A program made the translations under genes and the position numbers. From positions 8,997-63,280 of the forward strand of contig CAZXGO010000005.1 in assembly GCA_964640035.1 (NCBI GenBank): DNA of 54,284 nt, written 5' to 3'. A model generated the notes under the pieces. The model did not search any database. It saw only the letters and a program-made list of their open reading frames with translations, and was not told the origin of the DNA. Source of the stretch: an uncultured Chitinophagales bacterium. GTDB taxonomy: Bacteria; Bacteroidota; Rhodothermia; Balneolales; CAYWCV01. Positions 7,163-24,366 of the stretch are shown in pieces (position 1 is the stretch's first letter; the number at the start of each line of letters is the position of its first letter).

Positions 7163-9718
7163 ATGGAAAAGTCCAAAAAAAATAGTGCTGATTCTACACC
7201 AGGTCTCAAAACGATAAGCTCGCAAAGAAAACTCGAGATTTTCGGTATTGTCCTGATAGGTATCGCTGTTCTCGTTGGCGTAAGTATCCTGACGTATGAT
7301 GATGCTGATCGTTCGTTTATTCAATCGCTCGGTGTTCCCGGGGTAAGCCCAGTCGACGAAGGTTCACAACGTGTTAAAAATGGCCTCGGTGTATTGGGAG
7401 CTTGGATTTCCCACGGATTCGTCAAAAATGGATTCGGCTATTTTAGCTTACTCATCCCGCTCCTAACCATTTACTATGGATGGTACATATTTAGAAGTAA
7501 GCCATTGCTTCACCTGAATGGAATTACCATGTTGGTGACCTATCTCATGTTTCTTCTTGCTACGCTAACGGGATACCTCCGATATGCCCTCGATTTAGAG
7601 GAAGCATTTGGCTTCACCTGGGCAGGAACAGTTGGGATCACTCTATCTGGTTTATTACTTAAATACACGGGTGAAGTGGGCACCCCAATCATTTTGGGAA
7701 TACTCTTGTTGGTAACGGGCTTGTTTGTCATAGATAAGGATGTTCAGGGGCTCATCGACAGAATCAAACAGTGGAAACAAGATAGAGACCAACGTATTGC
7801 ACAAAAGGCATCTGAAATTGCCGAAAAGAAGGCATCGCCGGTATATTTCGAAGACGAACCCCTCACCAAAGGTGTTCGCAAGCAAGTAAAGCCGAATCAG
7901 GTGGATTCGGATGCCACGGATGAATCATCGAATGTGGTAGAATCAAAGAAAGATGCCCGAATGAGCCTTGAAGAAGAGCAGCAGGCGTCCATACAAGCTA
8001 CTATTGCCGAATCGCGCCGCCGGGCTGAAGAGCGTCGCAAAGCAGAAGATGCAGACAGAGTGTACTTAGAGTCGATGCCCCCTCGGGCCGTGCTTGAAAA
8101 AAAGCAACCTGAAGAGGGTGTGGCATCGCATGATGATGTCGAGGTCAAAGTTTTTGTTGGTGAAGAAGATGAACAAGCCAGTGGTGATGAACTTGCACGC
8201 AGACAAAAAACCCTCGAGCGACAAATCCCCGAAATACGCTACAGTTTTCCAACGCTAAACTTACTTGATACCCCACCGAATGAGGGTAAAGAGATCGATT
8301 ATGCGGAGATCGACGAAACGAAAGAAATCATCCTGGAAAAGTTGCGTCGACACAACATTGAAATCATCAGTATAGAAGCTATCGTTGGACCAACGGTCAC
8401 TCTCTATGAACTCACGCCTGCACCGGATGTGAAAATCAGCCGAATTGAAAGCTATGCCGATGACCTCAAGATGGCCATGGCGGTACACGGATTGCGTATC
8501 ATTGCTCCTATTCCTGGTAAGGCTGCAGTAGGAATTGAGGTTCCGAATCAAAAAAGAGAGGTGGTATATGCAAAATCGGTGATCAATACGCGCAAGTTTG
8601 TTGAAACCGATATGGATCTGCCCGTCGCTTTTGGCAAAACGATCGAAAATGAAATTTTCATGATCGATTTAACCAAGATGCCGCACCTTCTCATAGCTGG
8701 TGCTACCGGATCCGGTAAGTCGGTAGGTATTAATACCATCTTAACCTGTTTGTTGTTTAAATGCCATCCGGAGAATCTGAAGTTTGTACTCATCGATCCT
8801 AAAAAAATTGAATTATCGCTATATCAGAGTATACAACACCATTTTCTAGCGACGCTACCCCATTTTGAAGAGGCTATTATTACAGACACCTCCCGAGTAC
8901 TTGAGATGTTGAATAGTGTGTGTAAGGAAATGGATGAGCGCTATGATCTGCTCAAGATGGCTATGGTGCGCGACTTGAAGGCATACAATACAAAATTCAA
9001 AGCAAATCAGCTCGAGCCCGACTTGGGCCACAAATATCTGCCCTATATCGTGGTCATCATTGATGAAATGGCTGACTTAATGATTACTGCCGGTCGCCAG
9101 ATTGAAGAGCCTATCGCTCGTATCGCTCAGCTCGCACGTGCAGTAGGCATCCACCTGGTCGTTGCAACCCAACGTCCATCAGTAAATGTGATTACCGGAA
9201 CCATCAAAGCAAACTTTCCAGCGCGTATTGCCTATAAAGTGGCATCTAAAGTTGATTCCCGTACTATTTTAGATACTATGGGGGCCGACCAACTCGTTGG
9301 ACGTGGCGATATGCTCTTCTCTGCGGGTGGACCCATGGTACGAATCCAGAATGCCTTTATATCGACCGAAGAAGTTGAACGCATTACTGCTCATATTGGT
9401 AATCAACAAGGTTATGATCGTCGGTATATGTTACCGGTTATTGAAGATCCAAACGGCGGTGATAGTGCCCAGAATGCAATAGAAGATCGGGATACACTTT
9501 TTGAGGACGCGGCTCGCGTTGTTGTTATGCATCAACAAGGATCGGTTTCTCTGCTACAGCGCAAGCTAAAAGTGGGTTACGGTCGAGCCGGTCGACTCAT
9601 CGATCAACTTTTTAATGCTGGCATTGTTGGTAAATATCAAGGTAGCTCTGCTCGTCAGGTACTTATTGCAGACGAAGAAGAATTGGAAAACCATTTACGA
9701 GATCTCGATGCTGACTAA
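7163..9718 (+). CDS. ftsK: DNA translocase FtsK
   Basis: N-terminal TM domain, linker, PHLLIAGATGSGKS, IIDEMADLM, ATQRPS, gamma domain LQRKLKVGYGRAGRLID. Confidence 0.97.
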   Translation: MEKSKKNSADSTPGLKTISSQRKLEIFGIVLIGIAVLVGVSILTYDDADRSFIQSLGVPGVSPVDEGSQRVKNGLGVLGAWISHGFVKNGFGYFSLLIPLLTIYYGWYIFRSKPLLHLNGITMLVTYLMFLLATLTGYLRYALDLEEAFGFTWAGTVGITLSGLLLKYTGEVGTPIILGILLLVTGLFVIDKDVQGLIDRIKQWKQDRDQRIAQKASEIAEKKASPVYFEDEPLTKGVRKQVKPNQVDSDATDESSNVVESKKDARMSLEEEQQASIQATIAESRRRAEERRKAEDADRVYLESMPPRAVLEKKQPEEGVASHDDVEVKVFVGEEDEQASGDELARRQKTLERQIPEIRYSFPTLNLLDTPPNEGKEIDYAEIDETKEIILEKLRRHNIEIISIEAIVGPTVTLYELTPAPDVKISRIESYADDLKMAMAVHGLRIIAPIPGKAAVGIEVPNQKREVVYAKSVINTRKFVETDMDLPVAFGKTIENEIFMIDLTKMPHLLIAGATGSGKSVGINTILTCLLFKCHPENLKFVLIDPKKIELSLYQSIQHHFLATLPHFEEAIITDTSRVLEMLNSVCKEMDERYDLLKMAMVRDLKAYNTKFKANQLEPDLGHKYLPYIVVIIDEMADLMITAGRQIEEPIARIAQLARAVGIHLVVATQRPSVNVITGTIKANFPARIAYKVASKVDSRTILDTMGADQLVGRGDMLFSAGGPMVRIQNAFISTEEVERITAHIGNQQGYDRRYMLPVIEDPNGGDSAQNAIEDRDTLFEDAARVVVMHQQGSVSLLQRKLKVGYGRAGRLIDQLFNAGIVGKYQGSSARQVLIADEEELENHLRDLDAD

Positions 9719-10334
9719 AACATATGTTATTGGCTTGTGGCTGCTACTGCTTCTTGCAATACCAGCCTTAGCCCAAAAATCAACGGGAAATAAACAGTTT
9801 GATCAACTGAGGAGTCGCTTTGAAAAGGGCGAACTTTTTCAATCGCAACTCAACCATCAGTTTATAGATTCATACACCAACGATACTACGCTAACCCTTG
9901 GTGAAATACTCATAGACAAATCCCGCTATCGTCTTTCTACCTCTACAGGCGTAGTGTTAGTTGATGGAAAAACCTCCCATGTATATAACCCTGAAAAAAA
10001 CCAGGTTATTATCAGTTCCTATAATCCGGAAGAGGATGAATATGCTCCATCTCGTTTCTTATTCGGGTCATTGAGTGAGTATGTCATTCGAAATGGTCCA
10101 ATGCGCAATAAAAATAGCACGGTAGTTATGACCTCAAACGACCCTTTTGCGCTATTTACGAAGGTTGAAATTGAATTGAATGAACAGGCGATACCTGTTC
10201 GTATTACTGCTATTGATCAAAGTGACAATGTGATTGTATCACGTTTTTCTTTTGGGAAATTTACTACTCCAACACCGCAGTCATTTTTACTTTCGTATCC
10301 AAAGTCGGCAGAGATCATCGATCTACGAAATTAG
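9708..10334 (+). CDS. lolA: Outer-membrane lipoprotein carrier LolA-like protein
   Basis: Signal peptide from ATG 9708 (in frame with the ORF-track 9615 start). VDGKT..VYNPEKNQVII pattern, C-terminal P..AEIIDLR, conserved ftsK-lolA order. Confidence 0.8.
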   Translation: MLTKTYVIGLWLLLLLAIPALAQKSTGNKQFDQLRSRFEKGELFQSQLNHQFIDSYTNDTTLTLGEILIDKSRYRLSTSTGVVLVDGKTSHVYNPEKNQVIISSYNPEEDEYAPSRFLFGSLSEYVIRNGPMRNKNSTVVMTSNDPFALFTKVEIELNEQAIPVRITAIDQSDNVIVSRFSFGKFTTPTPQSFLLSYPKSAEIIDLRN

Positions 10335-10354
10335 AGCGTCATTAAGGAGCAAGC

Positions 10355-11368
10355 TTGAACCAACAACAGAGCAATGTTTTTAAAGGTCTAATCAGCTTTC
10401 TCATAGCCATTGTTTTTCTGTGGTTGGCGGTTCGATCCATTCCTATCACCGATTTACAGGAAGTATGGCCGTCTATCCAATATTCCTGGTTGCTTTCGTT
10501 TATACCGATTACCCTATTAAGTCTTTGGTTACGTGCAGAACGATGGAAATTGCTCACCGAACACGATGACGTGGCATCTAGCAGGAGAGTATTATTTGCT
10601 GGGGTGATGTATGGATATGCGGTAAACTATGCCGTTCCACGATTGGGTGAATTTACCCGGTGCTACTATCTGGCAAAGAAAGAACAAAAGCCTGTCGCAG
10701 CGGTTCTGGGTACGGTGGTGCTCGAAAGAATCATTGATATGGTAGCACTACTCCTTCTTTTGGTCATCGTCTTTTTCTTTCTTCTGTCCGACAAAAGGAT
10801 CCTTTTGGTCTTAATGGGTATGGACGAACCAACGAATTGGATGAGTTTTTACTTAAAACTGGTGCTCTACGGAGTTTTGGTGCTGCTCTTTTCGTACGCC
10901 TCCTGGTTTGTATTCGGTAAGATTGCCGCGAAATCGGAACGTTTTGGCGCGTTTTATGCTAAAGTATCGATGGTTTTGTCTCATTTTAAAGAGGGATTTT
11001 TGTCCGTTAGGACCATCAAGCGACCCTTTTTCTTTCTAGTGCTAACACTGGGGATATGGGTATGCTATACGCTGATGACATTCATTCCTTTTGGTTTCAT
11101 TGAGGGTGGATTGCTTTCAAACCTTGGGATGAAGGAAGCATTGGTAATCACCGTCATATCGGCGGTAGGCGTGGCCATTCCATCTCCAGGTGGTATTGGA
11201 ACCTATCACCTCATTGTTCAACAGGGCCTGCATCTTTTCTATCAGATTCCTGAAGTCACCGGACTAGCATATGCCTTGATTTCGCATGCTAGTGTGATGA
11301 TTATCATCCTTAGTACAACGCCACTTTCGTTACTATTTGCGGCAAAACGTACCGTCAAGCCGCTCTAA
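10355..11368 (+). CDS. Lysylphosphatidylglycerol-synthase TM-region (flippase-like, UPF0104) membrane protein
   Basis: RAERW, N..VPRLGE..R, GTVVLERIID, PSPGGIGTYH and multiple TM helices. TTG start after AAGGAG. Confidence 0.85.
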   Translation: MNQQQSNVFKGLISFLIAIVFLWLAVRSIPITDLQEVWPSIQYSWLLSFIPITLLSLWLRAERWKLLTEHDDVASSRRVLFAGVMYGYAVNYAVPRLGEFTRCYYLAKKEQKPVAAVLGTVVLERIIDMVALLLLLVIVFFFLLSDKRILLVLMGMDEPTNWMSFYLKLVLYGVLVLLFSYASWFVFGKIAAKSERFGAFYAKVSMVLSHFKEGFLSVRTIKRPFFFLVLTLGIWVCYTLMTFIPFGFIEGGLLSNLGMKEALVITVISAVGVAIPSPGGIGTYHLIVQQGLHLFYQIPEVTGLAYALISHASVMIIILSTTPLSLLFAAKRTVKPL

Positions 11369-11386
11369 CAAGTCTGCTCTTCGTTT

Positions 11387-11408
11387 CGTATCTTATAAGG
11401 TTAAGATA
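11387..11408 (+). promoter_or_regulatory. Putative promoter box CGTATCTT overlapped by an inverted repeat (TATCTTA-N6-TAAGATA)
   Basis: Box at 11387-11394 matches the motif seen upstream of several genes in this window. IR arms at 11389-11395 and 11402-11408. Confidence 0.45.
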
Positions 11409-11430
11409 TACGCTTAAAATCCAGCCAGCC

Positions 11431-12579
11431 ATGCTTTCTTCTGCAGAGCGTCGACTTACTGCAATAATGTTCACCGATGTGGTTGGGTACAGTACGCTAA
11501 CGCAGCGTGATGAAGCGCTTGCTTTGGAGTTATTACAATTTCATCGGGATCTCGTTCGACCCATATTTCGATCTTTTGGAGGTAACGAAATCAAGACGAT
11601 GGGGGATGCATTTCTGGTTGAGTTTCAAAGTGCTATCCAGGCGGTAAAATGTGCCATAGCCATCCAGCGGGAGTTTAAACTCTACAATGCCTCGGTTGAA
11701 TCGGGTCGCGCCCTTCAATTGAGGATTGGTCTGCACATTGGGGATGTGGTTTTTGAATCGAATGATGTGTTTGGTGATGGCGTTAACCTGGCTTCCCGCA
11801 TCTATACGCAGGCATCGCCGGGTGGGATTTGTTTTACCCGATCCGTCTATGATCAGGTGTATAATAAGCTAGATGTGCCCATACGCAAGCTTGGTTCGCA
11901 ACGTCTGAAAAGTATACAACAGCCCGTAGAATTGTTTGCAATCGAGGTGGATCAGGCTCCGGTTGGTAGGAGGGTGTTGTTAAACCTTGGACTGGCCCTA
12001 ACAGTGGGTGCTCTTTTAGTCGCATCGTATTGGGCGTATACCCATTTTCAAACCCCAGTCAAGGAAGATTTGGTGCAAGAAGACAGTACGGTGGTGGCTC
12101 CTGTTGAGGATGAAATTACAAAGCCATCTCCAGTGGAATCAGGTGATGTAAGTACTAAACCTATGGCATCCGAACAAGAGGAACCTCTGAATACGCCGGC
12201 GGTGTCGAACGAGTCGGGGGTAGATGCGGCAAAAAAAAATGTTCCCACTCGGGAAAAATCATCAGACCCTCTGGATGCATTCAAAAAGAAATATGCCAGT
12301 GTTATGGCCACCTCAACATGGTATGATGTGCAGAGGGCCTTGGTTAGAAGTCGTGATATGGGCTCGCTGAATTTTTACCCCTCGCGAGATAGTCTGCCAA
12401 ATAGAGAGGGTGCAATGGTCATCGTCATTGATCCTAATGCCGCCAGCAACTCTTCTGTTGATGCCTTTCTATTGTTTACCGATTCTCGGTTTATTAACCT
12501 AAAAACGAATGAAGAAATAAGCTCTTTGTCGCAGCGTTACCCCGGGAAACGTGAAATTTGGGTTCGTTATCAGCAGTAA
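11431..12579 (+). CDS. Class III adenylate/guanylate cyclase, single TM helix, C-terminal extracytoplasmic domain of unknown function
   Basis: RRLTAIMFTDVVGYS, IKTMGDA, LRIGLHIGDV, DVFGDGVNLASRI. TM segment LLNLGLALTVGALLVASYWAY followed by a P/S/E-rich linker. Confidence 0.9.
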   Translation: MLSSAERRLTAIMFTDVVGYSTLTQRDEALALELLQFHRDLVRPIFRSFGGNEIKTMGDAFLVEFQSAIQAVKCAIAIQREFKLYNASVESGRALQLRIGLHIGDVVFESNDVFGDGVNLASRIYTQASPGGICFTRSVYDQVYNKLDVPIRKLGSQRLKSIQQPVELFAIEVDQAPVGRRVLLNLGLALTVGALLVASYWAYTHFQTPVKEDLVQEDSTVVAPVEDEITKPSPVESGDVSTKPMASEQEEPLNTPAVSNESGVDAAKKNVPTREKSSDPLDAFKKKYASVMATSTWYDVQRALVRSRDMGSLNFYPSRDSLPNREGAMVIVIDPNAASNSSVDAFLLFTDSRFINLKTNEEISSLSQRYPGKREIWVRYQQ

Positions 12580-12598
12580 TCATCATCCTTTTAAGCCC

Positions 12599-13597
12599 AT
12601 GAAATCGATTACCCTCTTTATTCAATGGATCTTTGTTGCATACTTGAGCGCCTCATCAGTACTTGCTCAGGCAAATAATGATGTAAGGGTTATTCTCACA
12701 GATGGACCAGGCAGAGACATCGTTGCCTTGCTTGAGTCGAATGCAAGCATCGTGATGTCGTCCATCAATCGCTTTAATCCAACTATTGGAAGGGTTGTTT
12801 TGCCTGACAATATTAAGGCGGGAGAGGGAATTTTTGGCCAAGAACGATTATCAGAGCTCATTCGGGAGACGGGAATACGTGTTACTTCACCCGAACTGCG
12901 TTCACAGGTTATTATGCTCAATAATAACACCTATGAAATACGACGAATGTATGTGACCACAGATGCTGAAAATGATCGTCAGTCGCTGGAGCTAATTTTA
13001 AGTTTTAATGCTGAGGGTAGATTAACAGACACCCGGTTTGCCATTGCTGAACACCAGTTTAATACCATCCTAGAGAGTGCAAAAAGCCTCGAAGAGGATT
13101 ACTATCTGCGTCAGATTATTAATTATATCGAACAGATTAAAACCGCATATAACAGAAAAGATGCTGACTATATCGAACTACAATTTAGTGATAAGGCCCT
13201 GATCATTACAGGTACACGCATTCAGGAGTTCGAGGGCGAGTCAAATATGGTAAGAGCGAGTGATAATGAGGTAGTCAGGGAAAAATTTCGACTCAATAAG
13301 CAAACAAAAGCGGAATACATGAGCCGCTTGCGTGATGTTATCTTTAAGAACAATGAATTCATCAATGTGGATTTCAGCGGTATTAACATCTATGTTCATC
13401 CAGATTATGAAAAAATCTATTGGGTTCAGGTTTTTCAAAAATGGTCTTCATCTACCTACTCTGATGAGGGATATCTTTCGTTTATGATTGACTTTGGTAA
13501 TGAAGATCAACCCTTGATCTATGTGAGGGCCTGGCAACCGGAGCCCTTTTCTGATGGCACCCTGATTGATTTGAATATGTTTGAAATCATCAAATAA
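12599..13597 (+). CDS. Exported protein with probable C-terminal NTF2-like domain
   Basis: Signal peptide from ATG 12599 (MKSITLF...SVLA|Q). AYNRKD..YIE..FSDKALIITG...Q.W.S.TYSDEGYL...DF...P.IYVRAWQP resembles NTF2-like Bacteroidota hypotheticals (from recall, not searched). Confidence 0.6.
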   Translation: MKSITLFIQWIFVAYLSASSVLAQANNDVRVILTDGPGRDIVALLESNASIVMSSINRFNPTIGRVVLPDNIKAGEGIFGQERLSELIRETGIRVTSPELRSQVIMLNNNTYEIRRMYVTTDAENDRQSLELILSFNAEGRLTDTRFAIAEHQFNTILESAKSLEEDYYLRQIINYIEQIKTAYNRKDADYIELQFSDKALIITGTRIQEFEGESNMVRASDNEVVREKFRLNKQTKAEYMSRLRDVIFKNNEFINVDFSGINIYVHPDYEKIYWVQVFQKWSSSTYSDEGYLSFMIDFGNEDQPLIYVRAWQPEPFSDGTLIDLNMFEIIK

Positions 13598-14946
13598 TGA
13601 AACGCTCTGAGTGTAGAGTCTATATGATGTCGCCGTTTAACTCATTCGTTGATTGCCTAAACCAGGGGTTTAGGCTGATCATGGTATGTGTGGTGCTCAT
13701 CGTAGTATTAAGCTCGAAGGCAGAAGCCGGTGATATGTTTGTTAGCTCCTATCCGAAGGCTGTTTTTGAGAAATGGTTACGTGATGTAGATGCCCAACAA
13801 GTGAACGAAGATGAGTATCGGCGTACTACGCTTTTGGGTCAGAGTTTTATACGCACGTACAACACGAATAAGGGCCAGCGTAAACTTGAAATTCATCGTA
13901 CCATCGATGGCTATATCTATGATATTGGTGAATATGTTGATTTGGGTTCTGTAGGCGACACCTACATTTCGTCTACTATTCAAATTATCACCTCTAGAAT
14001 CATTTGGGCTGCATTAACTCATAATGAACCCTATCTGCGAAGTGTTCTCGCCTCTGAACGTATTCATGTTGAATCGCCCTATTTAGGATCTAAAGAGTCT
14101 CAGGTTCTTGGGTTCGTACGAGCTAACCCCAATCTTCATGTTGGTAATTTTTATCTGAGCATATTTGAAGGCTCACCCGTGTTAGCCGCTGAAACGGATA
14201 ATAACTTTATCAAAATCAACATTAATCCTACCATAGACCTGCTTCTACAGGGTCAGGTAGTTTTATATCAGGAAATTTTACAAAAACGGCTAAAAAACGT
14301 GGAAAACTCAGCTGAAGAGCCTTTTTCTATCCACCCTGCCTATCAATTTGTACATTCTGAAACCCAGTTTTCTTATAAACTGCCAAAGATAAATTACTAT
14401 CAGAATGAACGATCATATTTGAGAAATGGGCCCCAAGATCAGTGGATACCTACCAATAGAGAACTCCTGGCTATTCCTGAAGGAAGGCTCGCTTCCCTTG
14501 TGGCTCATCGATGGGCAACCCTGGCACTCGATAAAGAGTATCGATACCGCGATGTTAACGTCGCTGATTCTTTTAAGGTTAATGTAGCCATTGAGGGAAA
14601 ACAGCTCGAACGAATAGAAATTAAATCAAATCAAGCCATAGAACGACTCGGAGATTTATTCGGCAGAGGCTTACCAGCCTATTACAATACCATTAGTGCA
14701 CAACGCCACGAAAATGACGAGGTTCACATCAAAGGCGTATGGCTAATTATAGATCCTGACCTGGCATACGAACATATCTTTAGAATAACGGATGTCTTTA
14801 GGCTCGATGATAATAGCCGATATGTTTGGATGGAATCTCAAATTGGGGCTATTTTAGGGGTACGAATAGATCATCTAAATCAAAGAAAGATTCAGATAGC
14901 GCCTACCAAAAAAGAATTGCCATTGTTTAAAATCAACGCAAATTAA
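13597..14946 (+). CDS. Hypothetical exported protein (start uncertain)
   Basis: 449-aa ORF with TAATG coupling to the upstream gene. Signal-peptide-like MVCVVLIVVLSSKAEA. No family recognised with confidence. Confidence 0.65.
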   Translation: MKRSECRVYMMSPFNSFVDCLNQGFRLIMVCVVLIVVLSSKAEAGDMFVSSYPKAVFEKWLRDVDAQQVNEDEYRRTTLLGQSFIRTYNTNKGQRKLEIHRTIDGYIYDIGEYVDLGSVGDTYISSTIQIITSRIIWAALTHNEPYLRSVLASERIHVESPYLGSKESQVLGFVRANPNLHVGNFYLSIFEGSPVLAAETDNNFIKININPTIDLLLQGQVVLYQEILQKRLKNVENSAEEPFSIHPAYQFVHSETQFSYKLPKINYYQNERSYLRNGPQDQWIPTNRELLAIPEGRLASLVAHRWATLALDKEYRYRDVNVADSFKVNVAIEGKQLERIEIKSNQAIERLGDLFGRGLPAYYNTISAQRHENDEVHIKGVWLIIDPDLAYEHIFRITDVFRLDDNSRYVWMESQIGAILGVRIDHLNQRKIQIAPTKKELPLFKINAN

Positions 14947-15020
14947 GTAAAATAAGCCGAAAATAACGAATACGAATTATAGTAGTCGAATCTTTAATCG
15001 ACAAATCACCGATCTCTAAC

Positions 15021-15935
15021 ATGATAAAAACACCCTATACTAAAAATAATACAATTGGACTATTAAATATAGTCAGATGGGGTGTATTCATCTGTATGAT
15101 GGTGTCGCATAGCACATTGGCGCAGACCAATGGAAATCCGAAATTGCTGAAATCGGGCAAATTTGCACTTGAATTCGTGGATATTCAGGAAACAGCCAAT
15201 GTTGTTCCACCCGTAACGGAAGATGAGGGCATCATACGAATACTTCTAGATCCGAGTGTTCTTAGATACTATTCGGCTAATGAGGTTCTTAACTGGATCA
15301 AAAACGATCAGCTTCAGATTAGAAATATCAAATTTGATCGTCAAAATGTTGTCTTAAGACCGGATGGCAGCATCAGTTTTCGATTCGAGTTTCTATTTAT
15401 GCCCAATACGAGTCGTATAGACAGGCACATCCAAATTAGAAATGTCCGTGATTTTGATATTTACTATCAATTACATGAACTACACCAACAGAAAATTACT
15501 AACTACAGACTACGGGTTGCAAATGAACCGGTTTATGACAATCCCCGAACGGGTAAAGTTGTATTTCGATCCAATCTACCTGAATATGCCATTGAATTTG
15601 TTGATCCCAACAACACCGTTCGACGATTCAATGTTTTAGATAAAGTTCAAGAATTGGACATGTTGCCGGGTCTGTATCGCCCCATTCGTCTTACAAAAAC
15701 GGGACATCTGGATGTTGAGGCTACTCAGATTGTGGAGGCCGATTCCACCTATTCTATCGATGTACAATTCAGGACAATCGAAGTTAATGCTATCCCAAGC
15801 CTGCGACCACAAAGAAACAGGCGTTGGATTGTCTGGACCCTTTCAGGAATTGTCGCTACCTCTGCAGCGGCAATCTACTTCTCAAATCAAAGTCAAAACC
15901 GCCTACCATTGCCTCCAGGACCGCCTACCAATTAA
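15021..15935 (+). CDS. Exported protein with PEGA-like domain and C-terminal hydrophobic anchor ending in LPLPPGPP
   Basis: Signal peptide (..STLA|Q). GKVVFRSN...L.PGLY..IRLTKTG PEGA-like pattern. RNRRW + hydrophobic stretch + Pro-rich end. Confidence 0.65.
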   Translation: MIKTPYTKNNTIGLLNIVRWGVFICMMVSHSTLAQTNGNPKLLKSGKFALEFVDIQETANVVPPVTEDEGIIRILLDPSVLRYYSANEVLNWIKNDQLQIRNIKFDRQNVVLRPDGSISFRFEFLFMPNTSRIDRHIQIRNVRDFDIYYQLHELHQQKITNYRLRVANEPVYDNPRTGKVVFRSNLPEYAIEFVDPNNTVRRFNVLDKVQELDMLPGLYRPIRLTKTGHLDVEATQIVEADSTYSIDVQFRTIEVNAIPSLRPQRNRRWIVWTLSGIVATSAAAIYFSNQSQNRLPLPPGPPTN

Positions 15936-15940
15936 GCTAC

Positions 15941-18900
15941 ATGAGCACAGTTAGAACACAACATAGTATTCCATTGATACAGAGAGCAACGAAAGTATGC
16001 TCTACGTATCGCATGCGATATGTTGTACTGTTTCTTTTTGTATTCATTCATGGTCAAACCCTGGCTCAAAGTTCTTCTCTTATTGATAAGCAACTTTCTT
16101 TTGGCACAGGCTTAAATGGCAAGGTACTCGCCACAACCTTTCACAATAATGCATTGTATGTCGGCGGTGAGTTTACAACTGCAGACGGTTCAACACTCAA
16201 TTATATCGCCAGATGGGATAAAGATCGTTGGAGACCCTTGTTGTCAGGCTTAAGCGGACCCGTCTATACTATGGTTAGTTTTCAGGGTAAGCTCTATGTC
16301 GGGGGAGATTTTAATACTGCTGGTGGTAAAACGGTCAATAATATTGCAACCTGGGATGGGTCAAGATGGGATGTGATGGGTTCAGGTTTCAATGACCCAG
16401 TCAAAGCAATTGCGGTTCACAATAATCAGATTCATGTTGGGGGTGATTTTACCTACTCAGGATTAAATCCCAGACAACGGATTGCTTTTTGGAATGGATC
16501 TTCATGGGAGCAGGTGGCTTCTACTGGACCTAATGGATCCGTAAACATGCTCTTATCCTTTGACGACAAACTCTTTGTTGGTGGATCGTTTACAACGATA
16601 GGATCACTTAACGTAAATAGCATTGCCTCATTTAATGGAGCTATATGGGCAAGTCTATCTGAAGAGCTGGAGGGGCCAGTCAACAGCTTGACGGCATATC
16701 AAGGTTCTCTTATTGCAGCAACAGCATCGTCAAATCCCTCATCTAGTGCTTTGAGACGCTGGACGGGAACCAGATGGGAAACGATGATGCAACGTATCGT
16801 CGGAACGGTTTACTCCCTTACTAGTCTTGACGAAACGCTCATTGTTGGTGGAAATTTCTTTACTGTCGTTGATACGGATACCATTCGAAATATGACGAGG
16901 CTCACAAACCAGCAGTGGGTACCATTGGGAAATCCAGATTCGACGGTCCATTCTTCTACCCTGAAGGATGATGTCATTTATTTTGGCGGCTCCTTCGAAA
17001 GTCATGATGGTATGAAACGGTCGTTTTATTCAAGACATGCGCTGACTACACCACAAAGGCCCATCATTTTATCCCCATCAAACAACAGTACAAGGGTAAG
17101 TATTCGCCCCAATCTCTCTTGGGAATCAAAAGCTGCATTTGGCTACAGAGTGCAAATTTCTAATCAGCAAAATTTCTCGACCTCTGAAATCGACACGATT
17201 CTTGTTGATTCTAATCAACTTAATCTCGAACTAAAGGAAGGATTAACAAGGTACTTTGTCCGGGTTTTAGGATCGAATAATATTGCCGAAAGCGAATGGT
17301 CTGAAGCCTCTAGTTTTACAACACTTCTACGATATCCTGAACAAATTGAACCACCTAGTGGACAAAACCTGGCCAGTAGTACCGTCGTTTTCAGATGGTC
17401 AGGCCTTCCTCAGGCTCTTTCGTATCGAATTCAAGTTTCAACATCAGCCGAAGAAGACCCAGACACCTCTTCATTACTGGTTAATCAATCTGGTATACCG
17501 GTCGAAGTAACGCAATTTACCTATGCTGGTTTACTGGATGATGCCACCTATTATTGGCGCATCAGTGCTGAATACAACGATGGCGTTGTGGTCGTGCCTA
17601 CAGATTGGTCTAGGTTCGTTCCTTTTACAGTAAATTTGGTTCCACCTTCTCCAATACCGTTGGTGCCATTTGACAATGTTGAGTTGGATTCATCGAACGT
17701 TGTTTTTCGATGGGGTACTGTTCCAACGGCATCTAATTATCAGTTTCAGTTATCTACGACTACCAATTTTGATGTGAATCTTTGGGAGCAATCAACAACC
17801 AATGACTCACTGACGATAACAGATTTAAAAGCATCCCAAATCTACTATTGGCGAGTTCGTTCACAAAACATTTCAGGTTCATCTCAATGGTCACTTGTCA
17901 AATCATTCAAAACAAAAAACGTTAAGCCATCCAAAGTGAACCTAATTGGTCCGGATGATCGTGAAAAGGACATTGTTTTAACACCGTTTTTAGTATGGTC
18001 TAGATCAATAGGGTCGTCGAGATATCAGTTAGAACTATCCAACTCAGGTACTTTTCCTGTGGGTTCAACGGCTGTATATCTCGTCGAGAATGATACTACA
18101 TATCAAGTACCCAAGCTTCAACAAGGTCTTGTATACTTCTGGCGTGTTACTGGTATCAATGAACATCAGGTGTTGGGCGAAACATCCGTTTCCAGATCAT
18201 TTACCACAATTAATGCACCCACTCTGACGTCTGCACCAAGTCTTATTAGTCCTGTAAACAACTCAGACAGTTTAAGTTCAACAGTTACCCTATCATGGCA
18301 AGCCATTTCAGGAGCCACTAAATACAGAATACAGTTATCGAGAGACCTTGATTTCATGCAGCTTATTCTCGACAACAAAAATGTGACAGCAAGTCAACTT
18401 CAAGTAGACAACCTCTTACCATCCGAGACCTATTATTGGCGTGTTACAGCCATAAATCAAGCTGGTGATGGCCCCTGGTCTTCGAAATGGTCGTTTTCTA
18501 CAAACGTCATCATACCAGCCCCTCCTTCGCTCTTATTGCCGTCTAATGCTTCTGTTAAAGTAAGCCTTCCGCCTGTCTTACACTGGAACGCTGTGCAAGG
18601 TGCGGAGTCGTATCAGATTCAAGTATCAACACAATCCAATCTCACCGAAAGTACCCCCATTTTATCTTCGAATTCGAACTCGATTACTATCACCACAGCA
18701 ACGCATCGAACCCCATATTACTGGAGAGTAAGGGCTGTCAACAAAGCTGGTGTTAGTGAGTGGAGTGCTGCTTGGGTGTTTACCACTATCACGAATGTCG
18801 CCGAGCAGGTTACATTGGTGAGTCCGACTGACTTGGCGAGAAACATTCCGCAAACCATATTATTGCAGTGGGCTCCTCTGAATCAGGTGCGATCCTATCG

Positions 18901-21289
18901 TTTACAATTGTCGGAAACAGTCAATTTTTCGAGTAATGTCGTTACGGATGCACAAATTGATACCACCTTTTTTACTCAAGTTCGGTTAAAAGGGGGCAAA
19001 AATTATTACTGGCGCGTTGCTGCATTAAATGATGCTGGACAAGGTCCTTGGTCTGCCGTCCGATCTTTCCTAACCATACCCTCAAAACCTTCTCCTCCGG
19101 TTCTAGTCTTTCCTGCAAATAGCAATCAATTTATTGTTAAACCGGATAGTCTAGTATGGAGAGTGATCGGTATTGTTGACACGTACCGTATTCAACTTTC
19201 CAAGAACCAAGAATTCGAATTTGATGAAGATTATTTGTTTGATTTAGACAACATAACGACATCAAAACTTGACTTTCTTGCTTTGAATATTTCAAAACTT
19301 GAAAGTAATACCACGTATTACTGGAGAGTAAGGGCTCAAAATACAACGGGTATCAGCGAATGGTCTCCAGTGTGGTCATTTAAAACCAACCCAAGCAAGC
19401 CTACCAAGGTACAACTCATCGACCCTGCTGATAAAAAACTGGTTGATAATATTCAGAATCTGATCTTTAAATGGGCCCCAGCTGAAAGTGCACTTTTTTA
19501 TGAAATCGATATCTCCGGATCTAATCAGTTTATCGGAGATTTCTTACCAATAATCAGATTAACAGAACAATCCTATAATATCCCTACCCAAACACCACCT
19601 TCACCTAATAAAACCTACTACTGGAGGGTAAGGGCTGGTAATGAATTCAATGCAGGGGATCAATTTGGAGACTGGTCGGAGGTTAGAACGTTTCTAACGA
19701 AACCGAATCCTCCCGACTCAGTTAAACTCACATCTCCATTCAGTGGTATCGCCAATGCAAGACGCAAACAGGTGCTTCGATGGGAAACACAGAGTTTAGT
19801 TACGAAATATGTTATAGAGATATCGACCTCCCCGACGTTTTCTAGTACCATTAAAAGAGATAGCCTTAGCTCTAACCTTGACTCTTTGGAAGTATTTTTC
19901 CCCAATTTTAATCAAAAATACTATTGGAGGGTGCAGGCAGAAAATGAAGGAGGTAAGGGAAAATGGTCTAAACCTTCTGATCTTACTACCTTTAATTATC
20001 CCGGTACGATCAGCACCTCCTTTAGTCTAAGCTTTCCCAACACAAACCAATCTAGCTACCGATTGGTTAGTATTCCAGGTAAAGTCGATGTTCCAATTCA
20101 TATCACCTTTGAGGGATTAGGAAAGCAAGGGGTCGACTGGAATGCCTTTACGTTTGAAAACGGTCAGCTCATTGAGGCAAAATCCGGTGACCGTCGATTT
20201 AATTTTAAACCAGGTAACGGGTTCTGGATGTTGAGCAAAAAGCCGTGGAATATCTCCAGACAACAGGATACCTCTGTGGATCTTACCACGGATGATGCAT
20301 TCAGGATTGAACTCAAACCCGGTTGGAATCTCATTTCAAACCCCTTCAACATAGGGGTTCCATGGCAGTCTGTGATTACTGCAAATAAACTAAATGCGAA
20401 TAGATCACTCTTCTTTTTTACCTCTTTAGGTTGGACCCCACAAACCACGCTGATTCCAACGCAAGCATACTATTTCTACAATATTGAAAATGCTTCTTAT
20501 TTAGACATTCCATATCCAGTTGAAGGATTGAATCTTCCCAAAGGTGGTGCAAACCCTGCAAAACTTGTACAACCATCTGACTCCCAGATCCAGGTACATT
20601 TTCTCAAAGAAGACGTCAAGATTGGCTCTGTGAAGCTAATCCTATCGGACGATCAAAATGTAAAAAATAAGCCTGACCGAGAACCTGCTCCTCCGACACA
20701 TTTTTCAACGAATAGCATCACCTGGCTTGATACTGATCCTATGCTTCCTCAATCGGAATGGTATTCGATAACAGAATACTTGGATCAATCGCCAATTTCG
20801 AAGAAAATAACAGTCAATGTAGGTGAATCAGCGAACTACAGCTTAGATGTAGAGCTTTTCCTGGAGGATAATCTTATTGCTCATCTATGGGATACCAAAA
20901 ATCAACGTTGGTTACAAAAAGGTGATCGTGGATTTGAGGTATTTTTACAATCAGGTCAACATCATTTCGAACTCTTTTTAGGCTCAGACCAGCAAATCAC
21001 AAAGATTATTGAGGAGACCCTACCAACACAATTTGAATTGTTGAGTAACTATCCGAACCCATTTAATCCTACGACGACCTTGCGGTTTTCACTTCCAGAG
21101 CCTAACAAAGTGAATATGAATATTTATGACATTATGGGCCGTAAAGTGAGCACCCTGATCAGCCAACGACTAGAGGCGGGATATCATAGTATTGATTGGA
21201 ATGCGTCGCATTTAGCTAGTGGGGTCTATATCGTAGAATTAGTGGCAGGCCAGCAAAGACGTACCCAAAAAATAGCTCTTATAAAGTAA
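15941..21289 (+). CDS. Large T9SS-secreted surface protein: 7-blade beta-propeller, 10 FN3-like repeats, T9SS type A CTD
   Basis: Seven LYVGGxF-type blades and ten YYWRVxAxN..G...WS...F.T repeats. C-terminal NYPNPFNPTT...LASGVY...KIALIK. Start is ATG 15941 or ATG 16013 (signal peptide MRYVVLFLFVFIHGQTLA); the ORF-track start 15824 overlaps the upstream gene. Confidence 0.88.
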   Translation: MSTVRTQHSIPLIQRATKVCSTYRMRYVVLFLFVFIHGQTLAQSSSLIDKQLSFGTGLNGKVLATTFHNNALYVGGEFTTADGSTLNYIARWDKDRWRPLLSGLSGPVYTMVSFQGKLYVGGDFNTAGGKTVNNIATWDGSRWDVMGSGFNDPVKAIAVHNNQIHVGGDFTYSGLNPRQRIAFWNGSSWEQVASTGPNGSVNMLLSFDDKLFVGGSFTTIGSLNVNSIASFNGAIWASLSEELEGPVNSLTAYQGSLIAATASSNPSSSALRRWTGTRWETMMQRIVGTVYSLTSLDETLIVGGNFFTVVDTDTIRNMTRLTNQQWVPLGNPDSTVHSSTLKDDVIYFGGSFESHDGMKRSFYSRHALTTPQRPIILSPSNNSTRVSIRPNLSWESKAAFGYRVQISNQQNFSTSEIDTILVDSNQLNLELKEGLTRYFVRVLGSNNIAESEWSEASSFTTLLRYPEQIEPPSGQNLASSTVVFRWSGLPQALSYRIQVSTSAEEDPDTSSLLVNQSGIPVEVTQFTYAGLLDDATYYWRISAEYNDGVVVVPTDWSRFVPFTVNLVPPSPIPLVPFDNVELDSSNVVFRWGTVPTASNYQFQLSTTTNFDVNLWEQSTTNDSLTITDLKASQIYYWRVRSQNISGSSQWSLVKSFKTKNVKPSKVNLIGPDDREKDIVLTPFLVWSRSIGSSRYQLELSNSGTFPVGSTAVYLVENDTTYQVPKLQQGLVYFWRVTGINEHQVLGETSVSRSFTTINAPTLTSAPSLISPVNNSDSLSSTVTLSWQAISGATKYRIQLSRDLDFMQLILDNKNVTASQLQVDNLLPSETYYWRVTAINQAGDGPWSSKWSFSTNVIIPAPPSLLLPSNASVKVSLPPVLHWNAVQGAESYQIQVSTQSNLTESTPILSSNSNSITITTATHRTPYYWRVRAVNKAGVSEWSAAWVFTTITNVAEQVTLVSPTDLARNIPQTILLQWAPLNQVRSYRLQLSETVNFSSNVVTDAQIDTTFFTQVRLKGGKNYYWRVAALNDAGQGPWSAVRSFLTIPSKPSPPVLVFPANSNQFIVKPDSLVWRVIGIVDTYRIQLSKNQEFEFDEDYLFDLDNITTSKLDFLALNISKLESNTTYYWRVRAQNTTGISEWSPVWSFKTNPSKPTKVQLIDPADKKLVDNIQNLIFKWAPAESALFYEIDISGSNQFIGDFLPIIRLTEQSYNIPTQTPPSPNKTYYWRVRAGNEFNAGDQFGDWSEVRTFLTKPNPPDSVKLTSPFSGIANARRKQVLRWETQSLVTKYVIEISTSPTFSSTIKRDSLSSNLDSLEVFFPNFNQKYYWRVQAENEGGKGKWSKPSDLTTFNYPGTISTSFSLSFPNTNQSSYRLVSIPGKVDVPIHITFEGLGKQGVDWNAFTFENGQLIEAKSGDRRFNFKPGNGFWMLSKKPWNISRQQDTSVDLTTDDAFRIELKPGWNLISNPFNIGVPWQSVITANKLNANRSLFFFTSLGWTPQTTLIPTQAYYFYNIENASYLDIPYPVEGLNLPKGGANPAKLVQPSDSQIQVHFLKEDVKIGSVKLILSDDQNVKNKPDREPAPPTHFSTNSITWLDTDPMLPQSEWYSITEYLDQSPISKKITVNVGESANYSLDVELFLEDNLIAHLWDTKNQRWLQKGDRGFEVFLQSGQHHFELFLGSDQQITKIIEETLPTQFELLSNYPNPFNPTTTLRFSLPEPNKVNMNIYDIMGRKVSTLISQRLEAGYHSIDWNASHLASGVYIVELVAGQQRRTQKIALIK

Positions 21290-21417
21290 CAATATGATCG
21301 TACTTGTACGTTACGTAACGATCGCCATACAAGACAGCTGATGACCCATTTTGGTTAGCTCATCAGGCCTTAATGTAGTATATTCACCATGATTTAGGGT
21401 TCCTATTCTGTTTATTT

Positions 21418-23070
21418 ATGAAGCAACGATTGTTTATCGCAATGTTATTGGTGCTGATGGTATCATCGGCTTCAGTAGCACAAACTCAAACGGGAACCCT
21501 TCTCCCAGAAATAGACCCACAGGATATAGAAATACGTGGTGATTTCAGAATCCGATTCGCCAGCCTAATCCGTCAACCAATACTTGGATTTACCAATAAT
21601 CAACGTATTTATGCTTTGGACCCAAATCGGCTTCCATTCATGGAAACTGAAGAGCAAATCAGAGCAAGCATGCCTATTGATGATCTTGAGCGTCCTGTAG
21701 CACCGACTAGAAGAAGAATTGTTTATCCTCAGAAAAGCACCTTGTACGGGAAAGCCGGATTTGGAAGATTCAATAGTCCGGAGGCCTCCTTGGCGGTAGA
21801 GACACCCCTAAAAGAAACAAGTTCAGTTGTGGCTGGATTTACATATGACGGTGGTGGAGATCATTTAGATGTCAATAGTTCCTATCGTTTGATGAATGCA
21901 CAAGCGGGTGTATCAACGAAGATTCGAAGCAATGGAAATTTTCGACTGATGGGTTCCGTACAAAGCGATGTTAATGACACGAATAATCCGGATGTTCAAA
22001 AAGAGTATTTCGGTGCTGGTCTTCATGCGCAATATCGCCATGTAACCAATAGTCTTACCCACACAGAGCTCACGGCGGGTTATTCTATCTATGATATTGG
22101 GTCAAATCTTGCTTTTACCAATGATCAGGAGCATCGCATCAGCTCTCGTTTTACGCGTCAATGGGCTGGAACGCGCACAAATGACATCTTTTTAGTGCAT
22201 GGTCGTGCAGATCTTGGTTTAATACGTAACAACAATACGCAATCCCAAACCTGGGCTCTTGTTGGAGTACAACCAAGGTATCAGATCAGACAAAAGTACA
22301 ACAGTCGTATTACTATGGGTGGCCGGGCCTACTTCGGAACGGATGAATCCGGCTCTAAACCTGTCTTGTATCCCGATGCAAAAGTAGAATACTTCGGCAT
22401 TGATAATATCATATTAAGTGGCCATCTATACGGGGAAATGAGCAATAGGGGTTTAGATGGAATCCATACCGACAACAGATTTACGGGATTAAATGTGCAG
22501 GTCCAAAATGAACGCAGATGGATAGCAGATACACGTCTCGATATACAGGTTCTTAATGCCATTTCAGTTTATGGTGGGGTGCAATACCGCTATTCACCCA
22601 AGTATGCATACTTCCAAAAGAGCCCCCTTCTGATTTCTGGATCACCCTATGAGATGTTCTACGACGAAAAAATGATGCAACTCCAGGTGAAGGCCGGTGC
22701 CCAGGTAACGATCATTCCGAGTCTGGTAACGCTTCATGGATGGGTTTACAACCAAAATCATAGTTTAAAAGATGGAGGCAAGATTCCATTTGTTGAGAAT
22801 ACGGGACTTGTTGCTGAGACTCAGTTTACACCCTTTCGTAGATTAGCCATAAAATCATGGGTTCAATTCATTGGAGATCGAGAAACAGGACAAGAGAGCG
22901 AAGTATTAGATAGCTTTGTTCTGGTTAATGCACAAGCAGAGTTTATGTTGACCAATCAAATCGGTTTCTATTTTAAAGGTCTTAATCTACTCGGCCAGGA
23001 CTATCAGCTTTGGTCAGGGTATACAGAACGTCCATTACAGCTATATGGAGGGGTAGTAATACGACTTTAA
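21418..23070 (+). CDS. Outer-membrane beta-barrel protein (TonB-dependent-receptor-like barrel, no obvious full plug)
   Basis: Signal peptide, alternating amphipathic strands, C-terminal NLLGQDY..W.GY......YGGVVIRL. Confidence 0.7.
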   Translation: MKQRLFIAMLLVLMVSSASVAQTQTGTLLPEIDPQDIEIRGDFRIRFASLIRQPILGFTNNQRIYALDPNRLPFMETEEQIRASMPIDDLERPVAPTRRRIVYPQKSTLYGKAGFGRFNSPEASLAVETPLKETSSVVAGFTYDGGGDHLDVNSSYRLMNAQAGVSTKIRSNGNFRLMGSVQSDVNDTNNPDVQKEYFGAGLHAQYRHVTNSLTHTELTAGYSIYDIGSNLAFTNDQEHRISSRFTRQWAGTRTNDIFLVHGRADLGLIRNNNTQSQTWALVGVQPRYQIRQKYNSRITMGGRAYFGTDESGSKPVLYPDAKVEYFGIDNIILSGHLYGEMSNRGLDGIHTDNRFTGLNVQVQNERRWIADTRLDIQVLNAISVYGGVQYRYSPKYAYFQKSPLLISGSPYEMFYDEKMMQLQVKAGAQVTIIPSLVTLHGWVYNQNHSLKDGGKIPFVENTGLVAETQFTPFRRLAIKSWVQFIGDRETGQESEVLDSFVLVNAQAEFMLTNQIGFYFKGLNLLGQDYQLWSGYTERPLQLYGGVVIRL

Positions 23071-23071
23071 C

Positions 23072-23263
23072 ATGAAAGAACACGTTGCCAAAGAGATCGT
23101 TGCCTTGATTACCGAAGAGCTTATGAAGCGTGGTGAAGTCCATCTTGAATCAATAGGAAAATTCAAGGTTCTACACCAAAAACAGCGATTACGTGAAACA
23201 AATTTGGGGTCAATAACGATGCTACCCCCACAAGACACCCTCGATTTTGAACCAGAGTCCTAA
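23072..23263 (+). CDS. Small HU/IHF-like (HU-CCDC81-type) protein
   Basis: I.EELMKRGEVHLESIGKFKV...PPQD.LDFEP resembles the HU-fold V.L.G.G.F and P....F.P pattern. Tightly packed between neighbours. Confidence 0.6.
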   Translation: MKEHVAKEIVALITEELMKRGEVHLESIGKFKVLHQKQRLRETNLGSITMLPPQDTLDFEPES

Positions 23264-23264
23264 G

Positions 23265-24314
23265 ATGCTCGACCGAAAAAAAATCATTGATAGTCTTGCG
23301 GAGCGATTGAAAATTGACCTCCCTACGGCCGAGCATGAATATCAAGTGATTGTAGATCATCTGCAGGACGAATTAAAAGCGAATGGAATGGCTGGATTGC
23401 CAGGCTTGGGTGATTTTGTGATGTTTGATGGTAAACTATCGTTTGTGCCTGACACCCTATTAGTACGCAGCATCAACTTTCGGTACCATGGTCTGGACGA
23501 ATGGGAACTCGCAACCATAAAGACTCCGACGCTTCAGGAAGAGGATTCATACTCTGAGCATGAATCAGAACCTGCCGTATACATCGTTGAAGAGCAGGCG
23601 AATGACCATGAACCCACTCACAAAGAAGATCAAAAGGAACAAGTTGTTCATGAAGTCATTCCTGCTCAAATAGCCATCGATTCGAATAGTAGGACCAAGC
23701 CGATAAAAATCAGAGTTACAAAAAAGTACATGGACAGAGGACTAGGATTAAAACGGGCCTTTGCCACCTTTTTGATTCTTGCCACCCTCCTCGCCGGATC
23801 CTCTATCGCATGGTATAACGACTGGCTCGCCGGATACGGAGTTCCTTCCTTCTTCGACGTCTTCCCAGAATACGCCACCAAAGGTGATCCCCAATCGATC
23901 ACTCTAAATACACCCATTATTCAGGTTCCCACCCCTAAACCAGAGTACATCGATAATAATCCTGACTCCACCTCCTCAATTTCCCCTATCGAAGAGGGTG
24001 TAAATCCTGAGCTTCCCGAACCTACCTCGCCCATGTCTACCACCGGACTCGTCGGAGCCTTCGAAGACTCTCGTAGACCATACTACACCATCATTGCGGG
24101 GACATTCTTTTCTGAAGAAGGGGCTACAAAGGCTCTTACTATGGCTCAGAATGCCGGACTACGCTCCCGCATGAGAACGATCTCCATTGATGGCGACAGG
24201 GCCTGGGAAATCCATATCGGACAATTTACCTCCAGAGAAGAGGCCCTGGAGTCAAATAAAACCCTCCCTGGATCGTTTCAGTCCAATATCGTACGAGGGT
24301 ATGGACTACAATAA
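23265..24314 (+). CDS. HU-like N-terminal domain - TM - SPOR domain protein
   Basis: ATG 23265 one base after the upstream stop. N-terminal ...LPGLGDF...F.PD. TM FATFLILATLLAGSSIAWY. C-terminal YYTIIAGTF.SEE.A...IHIGQFTSREEA SPOR pattern. Confidence 0.75.
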   Translation: MLDRKKIIDSLAERLKIDLPTAEHEYQVIVDHLQDELKANGMAGLPGLGDFVMFDGKLSFVPDTLLVRSINFRYHGLDEWELATIKTPTLQEEDSYSEHESEPAVYIVEEQANDHEPTHKEDQKEQVVHEVIPAQIAIDSNSRTKPIKIRVTKKYMDRGLGLKRAFATFLILATLLAGSSIAWYNDWLAGYGVPSFFDVFPEYATKGDPQSITLNTPIIQVPTPKPEYIDNNPDSTSSISPIEEGVNPELPEPTSPMSTTGLVGAFEDSRRPYYTIIAGTFFSEEGATKALTMAQNAGLRSRMRTISIDGDRAWEIHIGQFTSREEALESNKTLPGSFQSNIVRGYGLQ

Positions 24315-24366
24315 ATTAAGTTTACAAAATCATATCTTTCATTTTCGCTAAATCCTCTCTAGATAT

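Follow-up and report, generated by a model that had tools for sequence, protein, structure and literature searches.

The window analysed here is a stretch of 54,284 nucleotides (nt) from an uncultured Chitinophagales bacterium (GTDB order Balneolales; assembly GCA_964640035.1, contig CAZXGO010000005.1, positions 8,997 to 63,280), and it carries five co-oriented genes, here called A to E. Judged by profile matches of the C-terminal domain of A, of C and of D, together with the protein family of B, genes A-D are the core of an uncharacterised, widespread envelope cluster. The reading slightly favoured here is that A-D are the version of this cluster found in one lineage, in which A is a receptor-type adenylate cyclase gated by periplasmic partners. 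The five genes and the parts of A are listed below, with positions counted in the window and lengths in amino acids (aa) or open reading frames (ORFs).

11431-12579, + strand: gene A, ORF of 382 aa, predicted one-pass receptor-type class III adenylate cyclase
11461-11913, + strand: cyclase catalytic domain of A (aa 11-161, Pfam match)
11974-12030, + strand: the one membrane helix of A, aa 182-200 (19 residues with a mean hydropathy of 1.97)
12046-12270, + strand: linker of A (about aa 206-280), rich in V, E, P and S
12271-12576, + strand: C-terminal domain of A (about aa 281-382), no Pfam model
12599-13597, + strand: gene B, 332 aa, ORF opening at GTG 12551, predicted exported protein with NTF2-like C-terminal half
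13597-14946, + strand: gene C, 449 aa, predicted exported protein, divergent homologue of cluster 1 (see below)
15021-15935, + strand: gene D, 304 aa, with signal peptide, PEGA/CarboxypepD_reg-like domain and C-terminal membrane helix
16013-21289, + strand: gene E, 1758 aa from ATG 16013, ORF opening at TTG 15824

The conserved cluster around gene B

Homologues of B extend down to 26-33% identity in Bacteroides and Flavobacterium; the 86 listed go down to 28% and include proteins from Flavobacterium and a Balneolaceae record. PF24125 is present on six of the 86 in precomputed annotation, and 24 columns are invariant in an alignment of 17 sequences, the polar ones among them being R115, Y184, Y240, Q280, W282, Y287, D289, R310, W312 and Q313 of B. 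In species-representative genomes, 582 of 599 pattern matches encode a B relative, which gives at least 582 places. The cluster spans Bacteroidota (Bacteroides, Prevotella, Flavobacterium, Cryomorphaceae), Balneolales and Melioribacteraceae. An earlier note written from the DNA letters (the first-pass annotation) had called B NTF2-like; a match to the NTF2-like family Cds6_C is present, but at 24.2 bits it falls below the cut-off of 27.

Eighty loci were kept, and all their ORFs were clustered into protein groups. The groups that recur beside B are:

just upstream of B, 65 of 80 loci: cluster 1, a protein of about 374 aa that Pfam assigns to no family
between cluster 1 and B, 18 of 80 loci: cluster 5 (LPP20 + PKD)
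mostly between cluster 1 and B, after B in three Bacteroides loci, 12 of 80 loci: cluster 9 (a shorter protein)
downstream of B, 22 of 80 loci plus the window: PEGA/CarboxypepD_reg protein
downstream of B, 47 of 80 loci: TPR protein

A neighbourhood analysis of B and C homologues had been suggested earlier, and in these loci genes for cluster 1, for the domain found at the C-terminus of A and for PEGA proteins do recur beside B. All four parts are present and adjacent in the window, namely the domain (on A), B, C (corresponding to cluster 1) and D (corresponding to the PEGA protein). The window order of domain protein, B, C-like protein and PEGA protein is shared with loci L009 and L010 and genomes G269 and G281. 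Compared with the unnamed B-family cluster elsewhere, the window has its C-type gene after B rather than before it, a cyclase in place of LPP20/PKD, and one PEGA-like domain in D. None of Pfam, NCBIfam and PADLOC offers a curated family for the core proteins, apart from the sub-threshold NTF2-like match, and a literature search found no paper on the cluster.

Genes C and D

Pfam assigns no family to C or to D (for D, no hit at E up to 0.1). D aligns with the PEGA group of the 80 loci (cluster 4) at hhalign 99.1%, E 4e-19, and with single members at 99.1% (L009 residues 29-231) and 98.1% (L012 residues 35-246). On the L009 and L012 proteins Pfam places CarboxypepD_reg at 175-250 and PEGA at 215-257, with CarboxypepD_reg of L012 at 192-255, and D residues up to 232-242 align onto the PEGA stretch 215-257 of L012. 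The PEGA anchor annotated earlier in D is thus retained as a label inferred through homologues (Pfam gives no direct hit on D itself). The protein is made of a lineage-specific N-terminal domain, a PEGA/CarboxypepD_reg-like domain at about aa 178-250 and a short proline-rich tail.

The C family aligns with cluster 1 at hhalign 90.1%, E 1.6e-6, over 306 columns. Direct relatives of C are 27 proteins, all at 43% identity or more; a search with the single protein reached the genus only (4 of 41 genomes), and a profile was needed for wider reach. The structure model of C (predicted local distance difference test, pLDDT, 89.7) has an NTF2-like fold at residues 290-425, with 6w3g_B at Z 11.7 and a root mean square deviation (rmsd) of 2.3 over 104 residues, and the Bacteroides DUF4783 protein 4q53_B at Z 10.9; Foldseek E values start from 1.6e-4. 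A search of the ESM Atlas with C gave a best score of 0.81 and nothing usable. B and C were considered as paralogues, but hhalign detects no relation (0.7% for B against C, 4.1% for B against cluster 1).

In hydropathy profiles B, C and D each have a hydrophobic segment at the N-terminus, and D also has a helix towards its C-terminal end, at residues 270-288; in E a signal-peptide-like start, recognised by eye, follows ATG 16013. With the helix of A, the earlier statement that every product has a membrane segment or a signal peptide agrees with these profiles.

Gene A, a predicted one-pass cyclase

The N-terminal part of A matches Guanylate_cyc (PF00211) at 64.5 bits (cut-off 21.9; residues 11-161). 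Its closest solved relative is 3mr7, a Ruegeria/Silicibacter structural-genomics entry (E 4.6e-33), followed by Ma1120 of Mycobacterium avium (4wp9, E 1.3e-18) and LipJ Rv1900c (1ybt, E 2.9e-13), the matches spanning A residues 3-171. Residues D16, K55, D59, D112, N119 and R123 are six out of six identical in the 3mr7 alignment and five out of six in the Ma1120 alignment, where N119 stands opposite Ala. We take D16 and D59 to be the metal residues, K55 and D112 the substrate residues of the ATP type, and N119 and R123 the transition-state positions, as in the class III literature; the Lys/Asp pair of A would presumably fit ATP. By these alignments the catalytic residues of A are intact. The three solved relatives are soluble or have other partner domains, and none has the helix and outer domain of A.

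The single helix is preceded by RR and followed by an acidic stretch, and domain proteins without the fusion have signal peptides. On these grounds A is predicted to be N-in, C-out, with its C-terminal domain outside the cytoplasm. This topology, with the cyclase inside and the conserved domain outside, is in line with a span across the inner membrane, one part of the earlier proposal that the set could reach from cytoplasm through periplasm to the surface. The linker between helix and domain is probably disordered and is the least conserved part of the protein within the genus, where whole A proteins are 56-57% identical versus 78% in the catalytic domain.

In a large protein collection, 31 protein clusters align with A over 90-100% of its length (44-92% identity). 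For several of them the longest contig has the length recorded for homologues of B or C, and these genes may therefore lie on shared contigs. The next-best relatives are CHD-TPR/TolB-like class III cyclases (P0296-P0382) of 560-670 aa, 52-60% identical over about 44% of A. They have the same order, with the catalytic domain first, but continue into TolB-like and TPR parts, whereas A has 382 aa, carries the cluster domain and lies inside the cluster. Since its nearest partial relatives are of this type, A looks like a CHD-TPR/TolB-like cyclase in which the outer part was swapped for the cluster domain. We know of no member of the TolB-like/TPR cyclases for which the signal is characterised.

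PknB-type Ser/Thr kinases (PASTA) and trypanosomal GRESAG4 cyclases have a comparable layout, with the enzyme inside, one helix, an outer binding domain and activation by pairing. The GRESAG4 structures 1fx2 and 1fx4 match A at E of about 1e-8. The outer domains of both groups are unrelated in sequence to that of A, and in A the enzyme is N-terminal.

The window genome has one other cyclase (G000:C145:543-2627, L089), a 694-aa ORF with a C-terminal cyclase domain. From its sequence, without a domain scan, its N-terminal part looks like CHASE2 followed by membrane helices.

The C-terminal domain of A and its reuse

A profile of the domain was built from 35 C-termini and searched against 1.84 billion representatives, giving 1152 protein clusters with E values of 0.001 or less, 503 of which reach 1e-10 or less. 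In the best 150 of the 1152 matches the domain is always C-terminal, and Pfam on 148 of these 150 finds no family on the domain itself. The N-terminal parts of the 148 scanned proteins include PKD_4 (24), LPP20 (6), PEGA (2), TIR_2 (2) and Pkinase (1). The two longest of the 150 were scanned apart. The kinase fusions are P0240 and P0138, and the TIR fusions P0132 and P0218. They share the layout of A, in which an enzyme domain is followed by a single hydrophobic segment, then by a linker of low complexity and the domain. Given these fusions, with a hydrophobic segment ahead of the domain in each case, the domain is evidently reused as the predicted outer part of one-pass signalling proteins. 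A metagenome scan with the kinase-fused P0240 gave 79 loci, all matching the kinase part only, with the domain or B in none of the 79.

Residues 271-382 of A align with the C-termini of cluster 5 at hhalign 97.3%, E 2.8e-11, and with cluster 9 at 71.5%, E 3.6e-5; a local domain profile scores A at 96.5 bits. Together with the values for C and D and the B places given above, these matches bear out the resemblance to a PEGA-containing Bacteroidota cluster that the first-pass annotation had offered from recall. The family has no invariant column, and its common Cys is absent from A.

The order was surveyed in 283 genomes, the genus of the window being represented by the window genome and three others. 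The domain is present in 32 of the 283 genomes and 10 of 68 genera. B is present in 30 of these 32 genomes, the remaining two being 64% complete. In 32 of 36 places with the domain (pairs compared by hand), a same-strand B begins 9-268 nt downstream; the four exceptions are G281:C259, G025:C64, G256:C76 and G187:C286. The window genome has a single copy each of B and of the domain. Within the order, fusion of the domain to a cyclase is found in the genus of the window only (3 of 29 loci tested, plus the window), and at other loci of the order the domain lies in ORFs of mostly 500-730 aa.

Two side observations concern the B-positive genomes of the order. The domain was not found in 26 of 56 of them. 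In such genomes, for example G106, G110, G117, G118, G126 and G127 (where E is about 1e-59), the ORFs with B-like matches are often 580-700 aa long, so that a B paralogue with a fusion or an extension is suggested.

The AlphaFold2 model of the domain of A has pLDDT 90.0. The fold check proposed earlier gave a clear answer for residues 290-425 of C but none for this domain: the best Foldseek E was 0.069, none reaching 0.001, and the best VIA row was Z 5.9 (8tw1_A, rmsd 3.2, 97 residues), below the threshold of Z 8 under which the tool treats matches as noise. CHAP, NlpC/P60 and C39 chains make up most of the VIA rows but stay below this threshold as well, and they give a lead only. Profiles of B, of C/cluster 1 and of the domain gave chance-level or low-complexity matches only against PDB sequences. 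Complex prediction of B (28-332) with the domain of A, run without controls, gave scores of 0.00, 0.38 and 0.00, which count neither for nor against binding.

Gain of A-E as one block

The genes bordering the block are:

10355-11368, + strand: left border, gene for an LPG_synthase_TM/flippase-like membrane protein (Pfam 132.3 bits), outside the system
21418-23070, + strand: right border, gene for a 550-aa outer-membrane beta-barrel-like protein (no Pfam family), outside the system

The roughly 9.9 kb of A-E were gained as one block at this place, because homologues of the border genes are adjacent, about 135-300 nt apart, in G007, G050 and G020, which represent two other genera of the order. 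This agrees with the earlier description of an insertion among housekeeping genes. The homologues are far apart in G135 and G137, so that adjacency holds in three of the five relatives examined overall. The stretch from FtsK to SPOR is syntenic in all three other genomes of the genus, with within-genus identities of 56-57% for A, 70-73% for B, 48-49% for C, 53-55% for D and 37-38% for E. The longest word shared by the flanks of the block is 8 nt, and no signs of mobile elements were found.

The gaps A-B, B-C, C-D and D-E are 19, -1, 74 and 77 nt. The five co-oriented, closely spaced genes of the first-pass annotation are there as described, although the same-strand run is longer than A-E: it includes FtsK, LolA and LPG_synthase_TM before the block and the 550-aa outer-membrane protein and a SPOR gene after it.

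Some observations concern the flanks and the occurrence of the block. The Atlas look-alikes of the right-border protein, scoring 0.99, are clusters from Bacteroidota with lengths of 553-576 aa; they share no Pfam family, and one is named TonB-dependent receptor family. The border genes (10355-11368 and 21418-23070) may themselves be a conserved pair, being direct neighbours in G007, G050 and G020. The LolA ORF as listed overlaps the end of ftsK by 104 nt (9615-9718), and a later Met ahead of the hydrophobic stretch TYVIGLWLLLLLAIPALAQ is a likelier LolA start. DNA nearly identical to the block is present in metagenome runs from seven studies, six runs holding at least half of the sampled words. 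The study labels (crustacean, lagoon, marine, subsurface, wastewater, aquaculture, unspecified) are a pointer to saline or aquatic habitats only, and among the 20 listed runs with such DNA no RNA run is included.

Proposed mechanism

The cluster would normally encode four exported proteins: the NTF2-like protein of 374 aa, an LPP20/PKD protein with the domain of about 100 residues, B, and a PEGA or TPR protein. In the lineage of the window, the secreted LPP20/PKD part would have been exchanged for a cyclase domain and one membrane helix, the same C-terminal domain of about 100 residues being kept on the outside. The cyclase domain would have been drawn from the common family of TolB-like/TPR cyclases with N-terminal catalytic and periplasmic TolB-like/TPR parts. 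The outer domain may dock on periplasmic partners, B first. Class III cyclases act as dimers, and the state of the partners, either their assembly or their ligand load, might change the pairing of the cyclase domains and hence the synthesis of cyclic AMP (cAMP). A CRP-like protein would read the cAMP; one ORF with cNMP_binding is present in the genome as a possible reader. Because cyclase, kinase and TIR, three different signalling enzymes, all occur fused to the domain, the signalling reading is plausible and better grounded than before.

Several observations weigh against this reading. The link of C to cluster 1 stands at 90% and no higher. Because the C/cluster-1 profile finds a match in only 7 of the 32 genomes of the order that carry the domain, and a cluster-1 or C-like gene is present in 9 of the 18 cluster-5 loci, C would seem to be a non-obligatory partner, or one too divergent for detection. 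The 47 TPR-type loci lack the domain, so B can work without it. The linker of 75 residues, probably disordered, speaks against a rigid relay and fits clustering or tethering equally. The cNMP_binding ORF sits on another contig than the block. Transcription signals are at chance level in 9500-24500, with 23 promoter-like sites (33.5 expected) and 12 terminator-like sites (12.2 expected). A promoter-like box had been noted ahead of A in the first-pass annotation; the sigma-70 scan reports no promoter-like site in 11369-11430, and the Bacteroidetes -7 motif TAnnTTTG has no match in the six gaps examined.

Two inverted repeats were found by eye in the gap between E and the next gene (21290-21417), GATCGT...ACGATC at about 21307-21334 and CTGATGA...TCATCAG at about 21340-21368; they have no T run and are not in the terminator scan list.

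A wider form of the receptor reading is put forward tentatively. The cluster may be a phylum-wide periplasmic sensing complex, with the domain of about 100 residues as a docking module plugged into varied outputs, mostly the secreted, lipoprotein-like LPP20/PKD form, and elsewhere a cyclase, a Ser/Thr kinase or TIR. The sensed signal could be a cell-wall or lipid-derived ligand in NTF2-like pockets of B and C, and the outer domain could act as a CHAP/NlpC-like binder that has lost its catalysis.

Gene E and alternative explanations

In one alternative, which we regard as doubtful, the cluster has a structural role and builds an assembly in the envelope, the domain does no more than anchor the cyclase there or elsewhere, and cAMP is made independently of B-D. 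The long, variable, acidic and proline-rich linker would suit a tether. The domain is also mostly found on secreted, non-signalling proteins (among the 148 scanned, the PKD_4 and LPP20 counts given above), and the 47 B loci without it point the same way. Against this, cyclase, kinase and TIR are all joined to the same outer domain through one helix, which is a receptor layout, and the adjacency of domain and B is kept at the 32 of 36 places noted above.

E has a Rax2/DUF5122 propeller, fn3 at 138.9 bits and ten FN3-like repeats of 95-104 residues, and ends in a sorting domain of the type IX secretion system (T9SS), matching PF18962 Por_Secre_tail at 43.5 bits (cut-off 27) and TIGR04183 at 44.6 bits (cut-off 23). 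The genome encodes SprA (1499.7 bits) and has 13 Por_Secre_tail matches, among which E is the longest ORF. By these matches E is a type A T9SS cargo, probably a surface adhesin-like one inserted together with A-D. For the region of 351 aa ahead of the T9SS tail (19991-21043), neither a Pfam family nor a paralogue within the genome was found; it resembles that of the L016 neighbour.

A second alternative, judged unlikely, is that A-D help to secrete, anchor or regulate E, and that the cluster serves large surface proteins. Gain of A-E as one block would fit such an accessory role, as would the same-strand Por_Secre_tail giants that follow the module at L009/G163 (2797 aa), L012 (1796 aa) and L016 (2765 aa). 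Of the 18 cluster-5 loci, however, only 3 have a giant T9SS protein after the module; ORFs of at least 1000 aa lie downstream in these three and in 10 of the 62 other loci, and upstream in 12 of the 62. The 351-aa region recurs in giant ORFs of 2081-5111 aa in G041 and G043, both near and far from the module, and in G041 a similar region is found in giant ORFs 20-45 kb away. The giants are not orthologous to each other and differ in build, with FG-GAP, Kelch and ASH elsewhere versus propeller and FN3 in E. The co-occurrence of the five genes in other genomes, which the first-pass annotation had implied, is found for the domain of A, B, C and D, but T9SS giants join them at only three of the 18 cluster-5 loci.

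That five neighbouring genes with separate functions make up no system at all is very unlikely. The co-orientation of the whole FtsK-to-SPOR run and the transcription signals at chance level would be expected in that case, but the outer domain of A, B, C and D are neighbours in several families, also beyond the order, and the five genes were gained as one block.

Least probable by our estimate is a defence role, in which a Pycsar-type cyclase and the module sense phage attack at the envelope: A matches PycC models weakly (best 28.1 bits, E 2.5e-7) and the cytoplasmic domains of the TIR and kinase fusions match ThsB and PD-T4-6 models, but such matches are what any member of these broad families gives, PADLOC has no match for B, C, D or a cluster-1 protein, Pfam shows no cNMP-binding effector of the Pycsar type in the scanned neighbours, B-F and the flanks in the window included, the Lys/Asp pair of A presumably fits ATP, the chromosomal contexts are stable at the 582 or more places of the cluster, and the block shows no signs of mobile elements.

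Other genes beside the cluster

Upstream of the cluster-1 gene at eight of the 80 loci (L041, L042, L044, L058, L069, L079, L080 and L087) lie genes for a 1024-1085-aa protein and for MORN-repeat proteins. The members scanned, both from L042, are Tubulin_2 and MORN; the MORN protein has a weak match to the gliding protein GltJ (25 bits). These eight loci resemble the FtsZl1/Tubulin_2 operons, with the gene for the 1024-1085-aa protein two genes upstream of the module and a MORN-repeat gene between, whereas the window has no tubulin-like gene. Such operons were predicted to form membrane-associated complexes (Makarova and Koonin, 2010; PMC2875224), and a search of the main text of that paper returns no mention of Bacteroidetes or PEGA.

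A second copy of B is present in 12 Prevotella-type loci (L015, L033, L053, L056, L060, L066, L067, L076, L077, L081, L083, L085), with the gene for a protein of 384-408 aa (cluster 8) upstream of that copy. The one cluster-8 protein scanned, from L015, contains CHASE2 and no visible output domain. CHASE2 domains serve as sensors and are commonly attached to cyclases or kinases, so this neighbour may be a further signalling link of the cluster.

Implications for the cluster

One-pass class III cyclases are already known, and the interest lies in the uncharacterised, widespread cluster. Domain fusions are one of the few clues to function that can be had from sequence. Here, with a single helix linking the signature domain to cyclase, kinase or TIR domains, they point to a role of the cluster in transmembrane signalling. 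The fusion in A also names a candidate read-out, cAMP, and candidate partners, B, C and D. Many gut Bacteroides and Prevotella are among the places where the cluster occurs. If the sensing-complex reading is true, the genus of the window would give a first access to the signal sensed by the cluster as a whole, its copies in these gut bacteria included.

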